Positions 7,920 to 28,806 are shown, counted from the first letter of the stretch. The stretch is DNA of 28,806 bases from a virus (IMGVR_UViG_2529292922_000011); one strand, 5' to 3'. Made by a program: numbers and translations. The notes: generated by a model not told the origin, from the sequence alone.

Positions 7920-8130
7920 GTCTGATAAGGAGGACGGGAGGCGTGCGCCTCCCGTAACAGGTTATGGCAAAGATCCGATATCTGCAGGGCACGCATGATG
8001 CCCGGGCCGGGGATATCCGTGATGTGGCACAGCCGTGTGCGGAGGTGCTGGTTCGCCTGGGAAAGGCGGAGTACATCACGGTGCGACGTCCGGCAGGTCA
8101 GAAAAAGAAACGAGATGCGGAGCATGGCGA

Positions 8131-19544: not shown

Positions 19545-20290
19545 ATGACACAGACAGAATCAGCGATTCTGGCGCATGCCCGGCGGTGTGTGCCTGCGGA
19601 GTCGTGCGGCTTCGTGGTGAGAACGCCGGAGGGGGAGCGGTATATCCCTTGTGTGAATATCTCTGCAGAGCCTGAGGCATATTTTCGTATTGCCCCGGAA
19701 GACTGGCTGCGGGCAGAGATGCAGGGGGAGATTGTGGCGCTGGTTCACAGTCGTCCCGGTGGTCTGCCCTGGCTGAGCGAGGCTGACCGGCGGCTGCAGA
19801 TAAAAAAGCGCACTGCCCTGGTGGCTGGTCAGCCGGGGTGACATTCACAAATTCCGCTGCGTTCCGCACCTGACCGGACGGCGCTTTGAACACGGGGTGA
19901 CGGACTGTTACACCCTGTTCCGGGATGCATACCATCTGGCGGGGATTGAGATGCCGGATTTTTCACCGTGAGGATGAGTGGTGGCGCAACGGTCAGAACC
20001 TGTACCTGGACAATATGGAGGCAACGGGCTTTTACCGGGTGCCCCTGTCCTCTGCACAGGCGGGCGATATCCTGCTGTGCTGCTTTGGCGCATCGGTGGC
20101 CAATCATGCCGCCATTTACTGCGGCAACGGTGAACTGCTTCACCATCTGCCTGAACAACTGAGTAAACGGGAGAGGTATTCCGAAAAATGGCAACGACGA
20201 ACGCATTCTGTCTGGCGTCACCGCCACTGGCACGCATCTGCCTTCACGGGGATTTGCAACGATTTGGCCGCCGCCTCAGCCTGTATGTGA
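19545..20290 (+). pseudogene. K: Tail assembly protein K, split into three frames by two single-base insertions
   Basis: Frame 0 (19545-19841) matches lambda K N-terminus MTQTESAILAHARRC...LPWLSEADRRLQ; the +1 frame continues ...LPWWLVSRGDIHKFRCVPHLTGRRFEHGVTDCYTLFRDAYHLAGIEMPDF; the +2 frame (to 20290) continues HREDEWWRNGQNLYLDN... Shifts coincide with an A6 run (19802-19807) and a T5 run (19959-19963). Confidence 0.8.
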
Positions 20291-21108: not shown

Positions 21109-24100
21109 ATGGGCAAAGGTGGCGGCAAGGCGCACACACCGCGTGAGGCGAAAGACAATCTCAAATCCACGCAGATGATGAGCGTGATTGATGCGATTGG
21201 TGAGGGACCGATAGAAGGCCCGGTGAAAGGCCTGCAGAGTATTCTGGTGAACAAAACCCCGCTGACGGACACGGACGGTAATCCCGTGATACACGGTGTG
21301 ACGGCGGTCTGGCGCGCCGGGGAGCAGGAGCAGACACCACCGGAAGGCTTTGAGTCCTCCGGAGCTGAAACCGGACTGGGCGTGGAAGTGACGAAGGCAA
21401 AGCCGGTAACGCGCACCATTACATCCGCGAACATTGACCGCCTGCGGGTCACCTTCGGGGTGCAGTCACTGTTGGAGACCACCTCAAAGGGCGACCGTAA
21501 TCCCTCTTCTGTCCGACTGCTGATTCAGTTGCAGCGTAACGGTAACTGGGTGACGGAAAAGGATGTCACCATTAACGGCAAGACCACCTCACAGTACCTG
21601 GCGTCGGTGATTCTGGAGAATCTGCCTGAGCGGCCCTTTAACATCCGGATGGTCCGGGAGACAGCGGACAGCACCTCGGACCAGCTGCAGAATAAGACGC
21701 TCTGGTCGTCATACACCGAAATCATCGATGTGAAACAGTGCTACCCGAACACGGCGATTGTGGGGCTGCAGGTGGATGCGGAGCAGTTTGGCGGTCAGCA
21801 GATGACGGTGAACTACCATATCCGAGGTCGCATCATCCAGGTGCCGTCAAACTATGACCCGGAAAAACGCACGTACAGCGGCATCTGGGACGGCAGCCTG
21901 AAACCGGCATACAGCAACAACCCGGCCTGGTGCCTGTGGGACATGCTGACTCACCCGCGCTACGGCATGGGAAAACGTCTGGGGGCGGCAGACGTGGACA
22001 AATGGGCGCTGTATGCCATCGGGCAGTACTGCGACCAGACGGTCCCGGATGGTTTCGGGGGCACAGAGCCGCGGATGACCTTTAATGCGTACCTGTCACA
22101 ACAGCGTAAGGCATGGGATGTGCTCAGTGATTTCTGCTCGGCGATGCGCTGTATGCCGGTATGGAACGGCCAGACGCTGACGTTCGTTCAGGACCGCCCG
22201 TCGGATGTGGTGTGGCCGTACACCAACTGCGATGTGGTGGTGGATGATAACGGCGTGGGGTTTCGCTACAGCTTCAGCGCCCTGAAGGACCGCCACACGG
22301 CGGTGGAGGTGAATTACACCGACCCGCAGAACGGCTGGCAGACCTCCACGGAACTGGTGGAAGACCCGGAAGCCATACTGCGCTACGGGCGCAACCTGCT
22401 GAAGATGGATGCGTTCGGTTGCACCAGTCGCGGTCAGGCCCACCGTGCCGGGCTGTGGGTGATAAAGACCGGACTGCTGGAAACGCAGACGGTGGATTTC
22501 ACGCTCGGGTCACAGGGGCTGCGTCACACACCCGGTGACATTATTGAAATCTGTGATAACGACTATGCCGGGACCATGACCGGCGGACGTATCCTGTCCA
22601 TCGATGCCGCCAGCCGCACCCTGACACTGGACCGTGAGGTGACCCTGCCGGAGACAGGTGCCGCCACGGTGAACCTGATTAACGGCAGCGGTAAGCCGGT
22701 GAGCGTGGCCATCACCGAACACCCCGCGCCGGACCGGATACAGGTCAGTACCCTGCCTGATGGTGTGGAGACATACGGGGTGTGGGGACTCTCCCTGCCG
22801 TCACTGCGCCGTCGCCTGTTCCGCTGTGTCTCCGTCCGGGAAAACACGGACGGCACCTTTGCCATCACGGCGGTGCAGCACGTACCGGAAAAAGAAGCCA
22901 TCGTGGATAACGGTGCCCGCTTTGAGCCGCAGTCAGGTTCCCTGAACAGCGTCATCCCACCGGCAGTGCAGCACCTGACGGTGGAGGTGAGCGCAGCTGA
23001 CGGCCAGTATCTGGCGCAGGCGAAATGGGACACGCCGCGGGTGGTGAAGGGTGTGCGCTTCAGTCTGCGCCTGACCAGTGGTAAGGGAACGGATGCCAGA
23101 CTGGTGACCACCGCCATCACCGCAGACACGGAGCACCGTTTCAGCGGCCTGCCGCTCGGGGAATACACCCTGACGGTGCGGGCGATAAACAGCTATGGCC
23201 AGCAGGGTGAACCTGCCACCACCACCTTCCGGATTGCCGCACCGGCAGCACCGTCGCGGATTGAGCTGACGCCGGGCTATTTTCAGATAACCGCCACGCC
23301 GCATCTTGCCGTTTATGACCCGACGGTACAGTTTGAGTTCTGGTTCTCGGAAAAGCGGATTGCGGATATCAGGCAGGTTGAAACCGCAGCCCGCTATCTT
23401 GGCTCGGCGCTGTACTGGATAGCTGCCAGTATCAATATCAAACCGGGCCATGATTATTATTTTTATATCCGCAGTGTGAATACTGTTGGCAAATCGGCAT
23501 TTGTGGAGGCTGTTGGCCAGCCGAGTGATGATGCATCCGGCTATCTGGATTTTTTCAAAGGAGAGATAGGGAAAACCCATCTGGCTCAGGAGTTGTGGAC
23601 GCAGATTGATAACGGTCAGCTTGCGCCTGATCTGGCTGAAATCAGGACGTCCATTACGAATGTCAGCAATGAAATCACGCAGACCGTCAATAAAAAACTG
23701 GAAAATCAGAGCGCGGCAATCCAGCAGATACAGAAAGTTCAGGTTGATACAAATAATAACCTGAACAGCATGTGGGCCGTGAAACTGCAGCAGATGAAGG
23801 ACGGACGCCTTTATATTGCGGGTATCGGAGCCGGTATTGAGAATACGCCAGCAGGTATGCAGAGTCAGGTGCTTCTGGCTGCTGACCGGATTGCGATGAT
23901 TAATCCTGCGAATGGCAACACAAAGCCGATGTTTGTTGGTCAGGGCGATCAGATATTCATGAACGAAGTGTTCCTGAAATACCTGACGGCTCCCACCATT
24001 ACCAGTGGCGGTAATCCTCCGGCATTTTCCCTGACACCGGACGGGCGGCTGACGGCGAAAAATGCCGATATCAGCGGTAACGTGAATGCGAACTCCGGGA

Positions 24101-24582
24101 CGCTCAACAACGTCACGATTAACGAAAACTGTCGGGTTCTGGGAAAACTGTCCGCCAACCAGATTGAAGGCGATCTCGTTAAAACAGTGGGCAAAGCTTT
24201 CCCCCGGGACTCCCGTGCACCGGAGCGGTGGCCATCAGGGACCATTACCGTCAGGGTTTATGACGATCAGCCGTTTGACCGGCAGATTGTTATTCCGGCG
24301 GTGGCATTCAGCGGCGCTAAACATGAGAAAGAGCATACTGATATTTACTCCTCATGCCGTCTGATAGTGCGGAAAAACGGTGCTGAAATTTATAACCGTA
24401 CCGCGCTGGATAATACGCTGATTTACAGTGGTGTTATTGATATGCCTGCCGGTCACGGTCACATGACACTGGAGTTTTCGGTGTCAGCATGGCTGGTGAA
24501 TAACTGGTATCCCACAGCAAGTATCAGCGATTTGCTGGTTGTGGTGATGAAGAAAGCCACCGCAGGCATCAGTATCAGCTGA
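21109..24582 (+). CDS. J: Tail tip / central tail fibre host-specificity protein J
   Basis: 1157 aa; near-colinear with lambda J over ~1000 residues ([22 protein letters not shown]..., fibronectin-like region, ...[20 protein letters not shown]...); the last ~150 aa diverge. Confidence 0.9.
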
Positions 24583-24601: not shown

Positions 24602-24625
24602 GGCGCCAGAAATGGCGCCTTTTTT
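24602..24625 (+). terminator. Rho-independent terminator after J
   Basis: ggcgcc / ggcgcc 6-bp stem, 6-nt loop, T6 run. Confidence 0.6.
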
Positions 24626-24649: not shown

Positions 24650-25249
24650 ATGCGTAAAGTTTGTGCAGCCATTTTGTCCGCAGCCATCTGTCTGTCCGTA
24701 TCCGGTGCGCCTGCATGGGCGTCTGAACATCAGTCCACACTGAGCGCGGGGTATCTTCATGCCCGTACGAACGCTCCCGGCAGCGATAATCTGAACGGGA
24801 TTAACGTGAAATACCGTTATGAGTTTACGGACGCGCTGGGGCTGATTACGTCCTTCAGTTATGCCAATGCTGAGGATGAGCAAAAAACGCACTACAGCGA
24901 TACCCGCTGGCATGAAGATTCCGTGCGTAACCGCTGGTTCAGCGTGATGGCGGGGCCGTCTGTACGCGTGAATGAATGGTTCAGCGCGTATGCGATGGTG
25001 GGTGTGGCTTACAGCCGTGTGTCGACTTTCTCCGGGGATTATCTCCGCGTAACTGACAACAAGGGGAAAACGCACGATGTGCTGACCGGAAGTGATGACG
25101 GTCGCCACAGCAACACGTCTCTGGCGTGGGGGGCTGGCGTGCAGTTTAACCCGACCGAATCCGTGACCATTGACCTTGCTTATGAAGGTTCCGGTAGTGG
25201 CGACTGGCGAACGGATGCATTTATTGTTGGTATCGGATACCGTTTCTGA
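24650..25249 (+). CDS. lom: Lom outer-membrane protein (Ail/Lom/PagC family beta-barrel)
   Basis: Signal peptide MRKVCAAILSAAICLSVSGAPAWA; barrel motifs GINVKYRYEFTD..., SVMAGP..., AYEGSGSGDWRTDAFIVGIGYRF match lambda Lom nearly exactly at the C-terminus (recalled). Confidence 0.9.
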   Translation: MRKVCAAILSAAICLSVSGAPAWASEHQSTLSAGYLHARTNAPGSDNLNGINVKYRYEFTDALGLITSFSYANAEDEQKTHYSDTRWHEDSVRNRWFSVMAGPSVRVNEWFSAYAMVGVAYSRVSTFSGDYLRVTDNKGKTHDVLTGSDDGRHSNTSLAWGAGVQFNPTESVTIDLAYEGSGSGDWRTDAFIVGIGYRF

Positions 25250-25354
25250 CAACAGACGCCGATTTATCTTCTGTAAATATTGTTATGATACGCAGGTTCA
25301 TCCACCTTATGGGGTGAACTGCGTTTGAGGAAACGTAAAGTTACACTGTCCTGA

Positions 25355-25387
25355 AGCCCGTGGCGTCACTGCTGCGGGCTTTTTTTA
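25355..25387 (+). terminator. Rho-independent terminator after lom
   Basis: agcccg / cgggcu stem with long loop followed by T7. Confidence 0.45.
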
Positions 25388-25400
25388 TTGGTGGAAAAGT

Positions 25401-26704
25401 ATGACAGTAAAAATTTCTGGCGTGCTTAAAGATGGCACAGGAAAACCAGTACAGAACTGCACCATTGTGCTGAAGGCCAGACGAACCAGCAGCACGGTGG
25501 TGGTGAACACGGTGGCCTCTGAAAATCCGGATGAAGCCGGACGTTACAGCATGGATGTTGAGCATGGTCAGTACAGCGTCACCCTGCTGGTTGAAGGTTT
25601 TCCGCCTTCACATGCCGGGACCATTACCGTCTATGAAGGTTCCAGACCAGGTACGCTGAATGATTTTCTCGGTGCCATGACGGAGGATGATGTCCGACCG
25701 GAGGCACTGCGTCGTTTTGAACTGATGGTGGAAGAAGCGGCGCGTCACGCTGAGGAGGCGAAGAAGAATGCCGGAGAGGCGGAGACGTCCGCGAGGAATG
25801 CCGGCATATCAGCCAGTCAGGCAGAAGAGAGCGCTGCAAATGCTGACACTTCAGCAGGGGATGCATCGGAGTCAGCCCGGCAGGCGGCAGAAAGTGCAGC
25901 CGCTGCAAAGCAGTCAGAGGAGGCGTCCTCGTCCTCGGCCTCTGCGGCTGCTCAAAAAGCCAGTGAGTCATCACAAAGTGCAGCAGATGCTGAGTTGTCA
26001 AAAAAGACGGCAGAAAGTGCAGCCGGTAATGCAGCCAGGGATGCAACGACCGCAACAGAAAAAGCCCGGGAGTCAGCAGAAAGCGCACAGTCAGCGGAAC
26101 AAAGCAGGATAGCGGCGGAAGAAGCCGTAAACCGAATCCCGACCGTGGTGGGGCCTCCCGGGCCAAAGGGGGAACCGGGGCCCGCGGGTCCTCAGGGGCC
26201 GAAGGGAGATAAAGGAGAGCGTGGCGACACCGGCCCGGCAGGGGCAACCGGCGAACGGGGACCGGCAGGTGATGCTGGTCCGGCAGGCCCGCAGGGGCCG
26301 AAAGGTGACAGGGGAGAGCGGGGAGAGACCGGTCTGACGGGAAATGCAGGTCCACAGGGTCCAAAGGGAGATACCGGTGCGGCAGGCCCGGCAGGCCCAC
26401 AGGAGAAACAGGTGCGGCTGGCCCGGTGGGGGCAACCGGACCTCAGGGACCGAAGGGCGACCCGGGGGAGACACAAATCCGTTTTCGTCTGGGGCCGGCG
26501 AGCATTATTGAGACAAACAGCAATGGCTGGTTCCCGGATACAGATGGCGCACTCATCACCGGACTGACCTTTCTTGACCCCAAAGATGCCACACAGGTTC
26601 AGGGGCTGTTTCGGCATTTGCAGGTCAGGTTTGGTGACGGGCCGTGGCAGGATGTTAAGGGGCTGGATGAAGTGGGCAGTGATACAGGCAGAACAGGAGA
26701 ATGA
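25401..26704 (+). pseudogene. Side tail fibre protein (lambda Stf-like N-terminus, collagen-like repeats), interrupted by a 1-nt deletion
   Basis: N-terminus [28 protein letters not shown]...[15 protein letters not shown] matches lambda Stf (recalled); Ser/Ala-rich region; Gly-X-Y collagen repeats from ~26150. The Gly-X-Y periodicity breaks at 26400-26403 and resumes in the -1 frame, which continues to the stop at 26704. Confidence 0.75.
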
Positions 26705-26705
26705 C

Positions 26706-26975
26706 ATGAATATACTAAAAAAACTTATGCAGCGTCTGTGCGGGTACGGAAAGCATGATGACCGTGAACACGGGGAGTTACTTACAGCACAACTGCGTCT
26801 GGGACCGGCAGACATTCTGGAGTCAGATGAGAATGGCATTATTCCGGAGCAGGACAGGGTAATCACGCAGGTGGTGATACTGGATGCAGATAAAAAGCAG
26901 ATACAATGCGTGGTAAGACCGTTGCAAATTCTGCGTGCTGACGGGACGTGGGAAAATATTGGCGGGATGAAGTAA
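26706..26975 (+). CDS. Hypothetical protein resembling the fibre C-terminal domain (alternative fibre-tip cassette or tfa-position gene)
   Basis: 89 aa from ATG 26706 (track ORF starts earlier at 26574); LRLGPADILESDENGIIPEQDRVITQVVILDADKKQIQCVVRPLQILRADGTWENIGG aligns with the fibre C-terminus [62 protein letters not shown]. Confidence 0.4.
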   Translation: MNILKKLMQRLCGYGKHDDREHGELLTAQLRLGPADILESDENGIIPEQDRVITQVVILDADKKQIQCVVRPLQILRADGTWENIGGMK

Positions 26976-26993
26976 CCCGACAGCTTCACAAAA

Positions 26994-27015
26994 CCGGAGT
27001 CCGGCTCCGGTTTTT
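26994..27015 (+). terminator. Rho-independent terminator ending the tail fibre region
   Basis: ccggag / cuccgg stem with 5-nt loop followed by T5. Confidence 0.55.
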
Positions 27016-27130
27016 GTTGTCATGTATAGGGGATATTTGTTATTAGAGTGTGAAGTAATAAACATGTTAATACGATGGTAACCGGCTCATTTAAACCGTC
27101 TGGTCTGTTTCCTCCGGCTCTACAAAAATA

Positions 27131-27808
27131 ATGTCCATCATTTTTAATGGACACTATCGTATGAAACACCGGACCTGGATCACTGAAGCTTTACGTCTTC
27201 ACTTTGAAGAACATTTACCCCGGGTTGTGGCCGGGCGTCGCCTGGGTGTACCAAAATCAACAGTTTGTAGTATGTTCGTGCGCTTTCGGAGAGCTGGCCT
27301 TTCGTGGCCTTTGCCCGCAGGCATGTCGGAGCAGGAACTTGATGCCTGCCTTTACGGACAATTTTCCACGGTACCAGTCGTACGTCCTGAAAGCACCGTT
27401 ATATCCGAAGCCCCCGTGGTAAAAAAACGTCCTCGGCGGCCCAACTTCCCTTATGAGTTTAAAATCGCCTTAGTGGAGCAGTCACTGCAGCCCGGAGCCT
27501 GTGTGGCGCAGATCGCCCGGGAAAACGGAATCAACGATAACCTGCTCTTCAACTGGCGCCATCAATACCGGAAAGGTGGCCTGCTGCCTTCCGGAAAAAA
27601 TATGCCGGCACTGCTTCCCGTGACGTTAACGCCGGAGCCGGATAATAAAATCCCGGCCCCCGCACAGGAACCAGAGCAGATAAATACACCGTCCGACAGT
27701 CTGTGTTGTGAGCTGGTTCTGCCGGCCGGAACTCTCAGGCTTAAAGGTAAACTGACGCCGGCGTTATTACAGACACTTATCCGCGAAATAAAAGGGAGCA
27801 GCCACTGA
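27131..27808 (+). CDS. IS66-family TnpA-like protein (orf1) with N-terminal extension
   Basis: C-terminal half (KKRPRRPNFPYEFKIALVEQSLQPGACVAQIARENGINDNLLFNWRHQYRKG ... LPAGTLRLKG) fits IS66 orf1; real start may be an internal Met; stop overlaps the tnpB start. Confidence 0.55.
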   Translation: MSIIFNGHYRMKHRTWITEALRLHFEEHLPRVVAGRRLGVPKSTVCSMFVRFRRAGLSWPLPAGMSEQELDACLYGQFSTVPVVRPESTVISEAPVVKKRPRRPNFPYEFKIALVEQSLQPGACVAQIARENGINDNLLFNWRHQYRKGGLLPSGKNMPALLPVTLTPEPDNKIPAPAQEPEQINTPSDSLCCELVLPAGTLRLKGKLTPALLQTLIREIKGSSH

Positions 27809-28155
27809 TGATATCTCTCCCTGCAGGTTCGCGTATCTGGCTGGTTGCAGGTATCACCGATATGCGAAATGGCTTTAACGGCCTGGCATCAAAAGTTCAG
27901 AACGTCCTGAAGGATGACCCGTTCTCCGGACACCTGTTCATCTTCCGCGGACGCCGGGGTGACCAGATAAAAGTGTTGTGGGCTGACAGTGACGGACTGT
28001 GCCTCTTCACCAAACGCCTGGAGCGGGGCCGCTTCGTCTGGCCAGTCACCCGTGACGGCAAGGTGCACCTTACTCCGGCTCAGTTATCCATGCTTCTTGA
28101 AGGTATCAACTGGAAGCACCCGAAACGAACGGAACGCGCTGGAATCCGCATATAA
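27808..28155 (+). CDS. IS66-family accessory protein TnpB (orf2)
   Basis: MISLPAGSRIWLVAGITDMRNGFNGLASKVQNVLKDDPFSGHLFIFRGRRGDQIKVLWADSDGLCLFTKRLERGRFVWP is the canonical IS66 orf2 sequence pattern. Confidence 0.85.
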   Translation: MISLPAGSRIWLVAGITDMRNGFNGLASKVQNVLKDDPFSGHLFIFRGRRGDQIKVLWADSDGLCLFTKRLERGRFVWPVTRDGKVHLTPAQLSMLLEGINWKHPKRTERAGIRI

Positions 28156-28174
28156 CCCGTTGTAAAGTGAGGAT

Positions 28175-28600
28175 ATGGACACCTCACTTGCTCGTGAGAA
28201 CGCCCGCCTGCGGGCACTGTTGCAGACGCAACAGGACACCATCCGCCAGATGGCTGAATACAACCGCCTGCTCTCACAGCGGGTGGCGGCTTATGCTTCC
28301 GAAATCAACCGGCTGAAGGCGCTGGTTGCGAAACTGCAACGTATGCAGTTCGGTAAAAGCTCAGAAAAACTTCGTGCAAAAACCGAACGGCAGATACAGG
28401 AAGCACAGGAGCGAATCAGCGCACTTCAGGAAGAAATGGCGGAAACGCTGGGTGAGCAATATGACCCGGTACTGCCATCCGCCCTGCGCCAGTCTTCAGC
28501 CCGTAAACCGTTACCGGCCTCACTTCCCCGTGAAACCCGGGTTATCCGGCCGGAAGAGGAATGCTGTCCTGCCTGTGGTGGTGAACTCAGTTCTCTGGGA
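28175..28600 (+). pseudogene. IS66-family transposase TnpC, N-terminal fragment only
   Basis: Leucine-zipper N-terminus and MQFGKSSEKL motif, then zinc-finger CPACGGEL; family similarity ends right after LSSLG where foreign sequence begins; most of the catalytic domain is missing. Confidence 0.75.

Positions 28601-28806
<206 letters not shown>

Follow-up and report, generated by a model that had tools for sequence, protein, structure and literature searches.

A collagen-like side tail fibre gene with a broken reading frame, followed directly by a small gene that carries a second version of the fibre's C-terminal domain, raises the question of whether the two domains are alternative receptor-binding tips. 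The locus occupies positions 25,401-26,975 of the virus IMGVR_UViG_2529292922_000011, of which one strand of 28,806 nt was analysed; this whole stretch is referred to as the window. An earlier note on this DNA had attributed the frame break to a single missing base, and had read the tandem domains either as cassettes exchanged by recombination or as a tip domain that doubles as the assembly partner of the fibre. We consider it likely that a lambda-like E. coli prophage encodes its EPclA-type side tail fibre module in this region, and that the fibre gene is a pseudogene. The small ORF is a conserved free-PfC protein, which accompanies the PfC-ending fibres of long- and short-tailed Stx-type phages, and is not a spare tip.

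The late genes of a lambda-like E. coli prophage occupy the window. By sequence similarity, the closest relative is the nleA-carrying prophage of EPEC E2348/69, the two being 99.3% identical over 25 kb. Only three substitutions separate the two between positions 24603 and 26252, and the collagen-encoding segment at 26256-26293 differs in length by 36 nt. The genes ECs_1808 and ECs_1809 of Sakai Sp9 (O157) are 96% identical to the window at the nucleotide level. The similarity to E2348/69 stops at position 27078, and an IS66-family element occupies the position of the type III effector cargo in the relatives. This element is context and lies outside the fibre module. The features surrounding the module are the following:

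21109-24582, J
24650-25249, Lom (PF06316)
25353-25382, + strand, terminator-like hairpin with a T-run, between lom and the fibre gene (13-bp stem, 7 GC pairs, T tail)
27079-28660, + strand, IS66-family element (PF01527, PF05717, PF13007), with genes tnpA at 27131-27808, tnpB at 27808-28155, and tnpC starting at 28175

Late transcription, antiterminated by Q, presumably passes through the hairpin downstream of lom.

The fibre gene is of the EPclA type, with the domain order PfN-PCoil-Col-PfC described by Ghosh et al. 2012 (PMC3368898), who list ECs_1808 as an EPclA with a 116-aa PCoil (Table 2). Its parts are arranged as follows:

25401-26567, + strand, fibre ORF (PF08400 and PF01391)
25401-25799, + strand, PfN domain, an Stf-type N-terminus predicted to dock the fibre on the tail (PF08400, residues 1-133, E 1.8e-67)
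25800-26150, + strand, Ala/Glu/Ser-rich low-complexity region corresponding to PCoil (from the sequence itself and its alignment to ECs_1808)
26151-26402, + strand, Gly-X-Y collagen-like repeat in the original frame, 28 triplets or 84 aa (PF01391, E 9e-15)
26400-26404, + strand, site of a 10-nt deletion (from the alignment to two intact relatives)
26405-26704, + strand, stranded 3' part of the fibre gene in another frame (PF06820, E 3e-37)

The PfN domain, the PCoil region and the single collagen domain that define EPclA are all present. The PfC domain (PF06820) is there as well, and its frame was lost through the 10-nt deletion. The PCoil-type region, at residues about 134-250, aligns with ECs_1808 and with the fibre of E2348/69, and its coiled coil is predicted. 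In the other frame, the ORF at 26426-26704 continues the collagen and encodes the Phage_fiber_C domain (PF06820). The stranded 3' part contains eight further Gly-X-Y triplets, a PfC knob at 26477-26668 and an 11-residue tail, and its protein is identical to the copy in phage Lys8385Vzw. The ancestral fibre would have been 437 aa long, with a collagen domain of 111 aa. The lambda Stf-type N-terminus, the approximately 80 residues of Gly-X-Y repeat and the C-terminal domain after the collagen, which the earlier note had recognised, are all borne out by these profile matches, with the in-frame repeat measuring 84 residues.

The position of the module corresponds to that of stf-tfa in lambda, where J, lom, stf and a small downstream gene follow one another, and the PfN domains (PF08400) of the two fibres are homologous. 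The Pf2 repeats of lambda Stf (PF03406) have no match here; the fibre has a collagen stem instead of the lambda shaft, and a PfC knob. The slot of lambda tfa is taken by a paralogue of the knob and not by a Tfa chaperone. The stf gene of lambda PaPa is itself frameshifted.

The reading frame of the fibre gene is interrupted within the collagen repeat by the loss of ten nucleotides, CAGG[GACCGAAAGG]AGAAAC, where the missing nucleotides are enclosed in brackets. The same gap appears in comparison with Sakai Sp9 ECs_1808 and with EPEC E2348/69, and the intact form of the segment, which would fall within 26380-26420, is GGACCGAAAG. The placement of the GACCGAAAGG deletion is ambiguous over the flanking 3-nt AGG repeat. 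The deletion removes one Gly-Pro-Lys (GPK) triplet together with one base, and the net effect is a -1 frame shift. The sequence GPQ-GPK-GET is found in every intact copy that keeps that part of the collagen among the 121 IMG/VR copies of the fibre and small ORF that were scanned. The loss of a single base was also considered and rejected: the allele with one G restored, which would read GPQ-GET, occurs neither in 5,426 complete E. coli genomes nor in the 121 IMG/VR copies, and the 10-nt deletion is therefore preferred. The junction of the window itself is absent from the same two collections. The single base that the earlier note had found missing at about 26402 is thus a 10-nt gap relative to two intact relatives, but the reading of the frames given there is right, because the net effect is still -1.

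Past the break, the upstream frame adds 54 missense codons before the stop codon at 26565-26567 closes it. The predicted product of 388 aa consists of 334 native and 54 missense residues, and the PfC knob and the last turns of the collagen are gone. Since the private 10-nt deletion puts PfC out of frame, the fibre copy is defective and EPclA*-like. ECs_1808 of Sakai Sp9 shares the EPclA architecture and 96% of the nucleotides, and only the copy in the window has the private deletion. Most simply, the event would be a private 10-nt deletion by replication slippage in the repeat.

It is unlikely that the frame break is an artefact of sequencing or assembly and that the fibre is intact. The remaining single-base differences from E2348/69 are all located in homopolymer runs, which is a typical signature of errors, and the collagen region is present in multiple copies, with a median of nine places per genome, which invites misassembly. 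However, the loss of ten nucleotides beside a 3-nt direct repeat looks like replication slippage and not like a homopolymer error. Furthermore, according to an approximate classification by a regex-based ORF-tracing script, 19 of the 101 assessable IMG/VR copies are broken, so that about one in five of the public viral-contig copies are damaged in the same region; the small ORF is intact in 16 of the 19. Frame-broken copies also occur in published complete genomes, since EPclA* copies "with frame-loss between domains" are tabulated for EDL933 and Sakai (PMC3368898, Table 2). It is extremely improbable that fibre production is regulated through the break as a programmed or phase-variable frameshift. 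The break is positioned within a repetitive tract, and this tract is broken repeatedly in other copies, but the particular junction was found in the window alone when complete E. coli genomes and the 121 IMG/VR copies were searched, and a 10-nt deletion is not readily reversible. A slippery heptamer is absent from the site when the sequence is read directly, and Mondal et al. found no signal for programmed frameshifting in the homologous genes of Sp5 (PMC5155283). The preferred reading remains a private deletion that turned the fibre gene into a pseudogene.

Other genes of the prophage are interrupted as well. ISEc13 is inserted at 11385-12935, at the head-closure/gp10 junction, between direct repeats GTCGGCTGG. 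In comparison with E2348/69, the portal gene is split into 8035-9495 and 9492-10715 by a change from G6 to G5, and the K gene (JAB and NlpC/P60) is split by changes from A5 to A6 and from T4 to T5. All three single-base indels are located in homopolymers and could be sequencing errors. The IS insertion and the 10-nt deletion are therefore the main grounds for the picture of a decaying prophage.

The gene downstream of the fibre is intact and is accompanied by its own signals:

26695-26699, + strand, Shine-Dalgarno sequence AGGAG of the small ORF, within the end of the fibre gene
26706-26975, + strand, small ORF of 89 aa, intact (PF06820, E 5e-36)
26990-27014, + strand, intrinsic terminator hairpin followed by a T-run, ending the transcription unit of the fibre and small ORF (-21.2 kcal/mol, z -3.55)

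The stop codon TGA of the fibre is located at 26702-26704, and one base further on the small ORF begins with the ATG at 26706. This junction, AGGAGAATGACATG, which combines AGGAG with TGAcATG, is unchanged in nine of nine alleles. A scan of the sequence between the fibre gene and the small ORF revealed no promoter- or terminator-like site. The small protein has a variable leader of 27 residues followed by a free PfC domain (26787-26972, residues 28-89), which is 40% identical to the PfC domain of the fibre (BLASTP, E 2e-15). The earlier note was correct that this ORF has a start of its own and encodes a diverged copy of the same C-terminal domain. The protein belongs to phrog_576, which it matches over profile positions 1-89 of 89 (E 7e-60), and its PHROG matches are limited to families 576 and 13758, both of tail fibres. 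Its E. coli counterparts are 98-99% identical to it, and RefSeq uses the name "phage tail fiber C-terminal domain-containing protein".

The variation among alleles differs between the parts of the two genes. Among 82 unique alleles of the small ORF, pN/pS is 0.076 in the PfC domain and 0.38 in the 27-residue leader, and the PfC domain of the fibre has a value of 0.23 (75 alleles). These ratios point to strong purifying selection on the PfC domain of the small ORF. Because the start signals are invariant and pN/pS of the domain is so low, we infer that the small ORF is a real, independent gene that is separately translated. An open frame of 46 codons extends upstream of its ATG in nine of nine alleles. 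Dual coding, or a fusion of the fibre and small ORF by ribosomal frameshifting, was considered and rejected, since the overlap does not display extra conservation (11 of 132 variable sites versus 13 of 149).

That the small ORF serves as a silent or alternative PfC cassette, which is recombined onto the collagen stem and changes the receptor specificity, is highly improbable. Mondal et al. 2016 had already put the idea forward, as an 'intragenomic reservoir', for ORF68 of Sp5 (PMC5155283). It draws on the tandem arrangement of the PfC copies and on an 11-nt identity, GGGACCGGCAG, which is present in the collagen at 26258 and again in the small ORF at 26801. In one protein of 95 aa (P0063), collagen is joined to a type-2 domain exactly at GGGACCGGCAG; however, the contig encoding it is only 3.3 kb long and starts within the collagen repeat, and the 25 top-ranked complete-genome matches to its DNA, which are followed by 699 lower-ranked records, all have the normal two-piece arrangement. 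One chimera of the 5' half of the small ORF and the 3' half of the fibre PfC (P0121) is out of register, lacks ten residues and forms a single cluster. An in-register swap, defined by exact motif matches as the end of the collagen, 25-55 nt and the type-2 DENGII motif, has no match in IMG/VR, compared to at least 120 matches of the normal arrangement. The homologue search, in which sequences were clustered at 90% so that a rare swapped fibre could be hidden, contained no type-2 homologue longer than 131 aa, and thus yielded no fibre of full length that ends in a type-2 knob.

The equipment for tip switching is also missing from the locus. As the earlier note had observed, there is neither an invertase nor a reverse transcriptase nearby: neither the ORFs of the window nor the annotation of the syntenic E2348/69 region include one, and the only recombinase-type genes of the window are IS transposases. 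No crossover-type inverted repeats bound the cassettes, since the only two inverted repeats are imperfect, 16 nt long and located elsewhere. The invertible G segment of Mu and C segment of P1 resemble the locus in having adjacent, alternative-looking C-terminal fibre segments. However, the cassettes of Mu and P1 are inverted, whereas both PfC copies of the window are on the + strand in direct orientation, without a Gin/Cin-type invertase or crossover sites. Diversity-generating retroelements differ in that they require what is absent here, a reverse transcriptase, and the PfC copies, at 40% identity, are unlike a pair of template and variable repeats. Paralogues this diverged are a poor substrate for homologous exchange. 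The conserved start signals of the small ORF, the strong purifying selection that its alleles suggest, and the clustering of its orthologues with each other across lineages speak against a spare tip as well. The reading of the domains as two alternative tips is therefore refuted, if weakly, and neither the joinings among relatives nor the search for invertases and crossover sites, which the earlier note had proposed as checks, gave it support.

In other chimeras, fragments of the small ORF are joined to parts of J, Lom or CII, and E2348/69 contains partial 3' remnants beside nleA and nleH. Such fragments and remnants are the expected outcome of deletions that erode phage genes but leave the neighbouring effector cargo intact.

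The small ORF is very unlikely to encode an essential, Tfa-like assembly chaperone of the fibre. It does occupy the position of tfa, right after an stf homologue and in close translational coupling with it, and it co-occurs with PfC-ending fibres. Nevertheless, the Pfam scan of the small ORF returned PF06820 only, without a match to a Tfa-type tail-fibre-assembly family, and so the unrelated chaperone-type protein that the earlier note had considered at this position was not seen. Recombinant EPclA alone forms a stable, dumbbell-shaped trimer with a folded triple helix, in which PCoil and PfC are each a trimerisation module and PfC can renucleate the collagen triple helix (PMC3368898). Sp5 can form plaques and lysogens on K-12 without ORF68 (89 aa), but its fibre, ORF67, is essential (PMC5155283). 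The trimerisation of EPclA alone and the dispensability of Sp5 ORF68 contradict an essential chaperone role. Of the assembly partner suggested in the earlier note, an accessory role is thus what stays plausible.

The small protein of the window and Sp5 ORF68 (phrog_576) have the same length, the same PF06820-only architecture and the same position directly after a collagen-like fibre. The copy of phage Min27, a short-tailed Stx phage of the Sepvirinae, is about 90% identical to the small ORF at the protein level. Unlike Sp5 ORF68, the copy in the window belongs to a long-tailed lambda-like prophage, where it is located behind J and lom, and it has outlived a broken fibre gene.

Of 297 matching phage records, 286 contain both the fibre and the small ORF, and long-tailed Stx1 and short-tailed Stx2 phages are among them. 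The family of the small ORF was found in E. coli, E. albertii and C. rodentium only (word-indexed search), and C. rodentium also retains the pair. When 1.84 billion proteins were searched exhaustively with a profile, only 82 representatives were recovered, and the family is therefore too narrow for a deep alignment. One orthologue (P0123, in L011), which is 63% identical, is encoded directly 3' of a 212-aa non-collagen protein ending in PfC, with NleG- and SopA-type effector genes once more downstream. The domains of small ORFs cluster together across lineages with 60-85% identity. The PfC domains of fibres are 30-71% identical among themselves and about 27-38% identical to those of the small ORFs. 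Orthologues of the small ORF, 63-85% identical, have been kept beside quite different PfC-ending proteins. The duplication is thus an old one, and both copies were retained.

Structure prediction of both C-terminal domains, which the earlier note had suggested, gave a confident result for the fibre PfC in one of five models (pLDDT 80, alignment of 16 sequences), which contains three long beta-strands. The AlphaFold2 (AF2) prediction of the small ORF, calculated from a 12-sequence alignment, has low confidence (pLDDT 54). A Foldseek search of the PDB with the fibre PfC model returned no match, and neither did a sequence search of the PDB. The weak Foldseek matches of the model in BFVD are to other phage tail fibres (E 0.005-0.1, TM about 0.6).

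Based on the domain composition of the two genes and on the published properties of EPclA, a sequence of events can be proposed. In an intact fibre, the PfN domain would dock on the tail, the PCoil region would form a trimeric coiled coil and the collagen a triple helix, and the PfC knob would trimerise and nucleate the triple helix. A slippage-type deletion of ten nucleotides in the Gly-X-Y repeat may have shifted the frame, giving rise to the 388-aa product without the knob. The truncated fibre may still trimerise through PCoil, without its distal domain. On the late transcript, ribosomes would initiate on the small ORF at its own Shine-Dalgarno sequence and ATG, and its product may form a PfC-type trimer of its own that, for example, caps or extends the distal knob.

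We predict that the small ORF is most likely expressed as an accessory protein at the fibre tip. More specifically, it is tentatively proposed that the small protein may be a non-essential accessory of the tip. It is somewhat more doubtful whether the free PfC binds to the distal knob of collagen-like and other PfC-ending fibres, or assembles together with it, and so modulates host recognition. If true, the docking on the knob would explain why two or more diverged lineages have retained the small gene together with a PfC-ending protein, why it is constrained more tightly than the fibre knob (pN/pS of 0.076 versus 0.23), and why it is dispensable on K-12 in the laboratory.

The fibre, the small ORF and the main hypothesis of the earlier note are all in the literature already, because they were described by Ghosh et al. 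2012 and Mondal et al. 2016, and we found no functional study of PF06820 (Phage_fiber_C) beyond these two. The window adds a further inactivated copy of a prophage fibre gene that exists in multiple copies, which in itself matters very little. EPclA-type fibres decorate the Stx-converting and effector-carrying phages of EHEC and EPEC. The comparisons presented here make the published speculation about a reservoir cassette unlikely and point to an expressed accessory protein instead. The remaining interest lies in the role of the conserved free-PfC protein, which is strongly constrained and co-inherited with the fibre.

The frame of the 89-residue free PfC protein (26706-26975), which directly follows the collagen-like fibre gene, extends 5' of its ATG as 46 open codons (26574-26705) that overlap the end of the fibre gene. 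This extension is open in all nine alleles examined, and some records annotate the longer version of the protein (ORF65 of phage Min27 and ORF76 of phage BP-4795). No excess conservation was found in the overlap of the two genes (26574-26705) among the nine alleles.

The fibre of the nleA-carrying prophage of the EPEC strain E2348/69 is near-identical to that of the window, apart from a length difference of 36 nt, which corresponds to four Gly-X-Y triplets of the collagen domain (26256-26293). The fibres of the IMG/VR copies range in length from 371 to 441 residues. The portal-region gene encodes a C-terminal extension containing a tandem repeat (9717-10249; 3.3 copies of a 162-nt unit, 95% matches), which codes for a repeated 54-residue module. 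The same array is present in E2348/69. Compared with E2348/69, the window has four one-base length changes, all of which are located in homopolymer runs.

Homopolymer length changes in the window relative to E2348/69
5958: T7 to T6, intergenic
9475: G6 to G5, splitting the portal gene into pieces 8035-9495 and 9492-10715
19802 and 19959: A5 to A6 and T4 to T5, splitting the K gene into 19545-19841 (JAB) and 19925-20290 (NlpC/P60)

These changes reflect either genuine mutation by slippage or errors of sequencing.

A copy of the IS4-family element ISEc13 (11385-12935), bordered on both sides by the direct repeat GTCGGCTGG, occupies the junction of the head-closure and HK97-gp10 genes. It is 99.8% identical to an ISEc13 copy of E2348/69. 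The corresponding insertion site in the E2348/69 prophage is empty. The region 3' of the small PfC gene contains effector cargo in the relatives. In the window, an IS66-family element (tnpA, tnpB and the start of tnpC) replaces this cargo within 27079-28806. The frame of tnpC stops early, at approximately 28660, next to a fragment of another IS.

28670-28780, minus strand: fragment of an IS21-family IstB gene

The position of the IstB fragment beside the prematurely ended tnpC suggests nested IS insertions at the 3' end of the window.

In E2348/69 (locus L003), incomplete copies of the small PfC gene that retain part of its 3' end (9042-9161 and 12547-12618) are located upstream of nleA and of nleH1-2/nleF, adjoining an integrase pseudogene. 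They resemble scars of prophage remnants arranged in tandem, where deletions ended within the final phage gene preceding the effector cargo. NleG- and SopA-type genes follow a diverged PfC pair in another assembly.

L011 110-974 (GCA_008387015.1, contig AAKHPG010000016.1): diverged PfC pair

The first gene of the pair encodes a 212-residue non-collagen protein with a C-terminal PfC domain, and is overlapped by the second, a 79-residue free-PfC ORF with 63% identity to the small protein of the window. The pair had no megablast match among complete E. coli genomes. The representative library also contains a 565-residue collagen-containing phage-like protein (P0144) with four tandem modules similar to the C-terminal half of PfC (…VVVLxADxxxxxGQxGILRVRQADGTWKEIPA…). 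Therefore, the PfC-like unit may also occur as a repeat within unrelated fibres.
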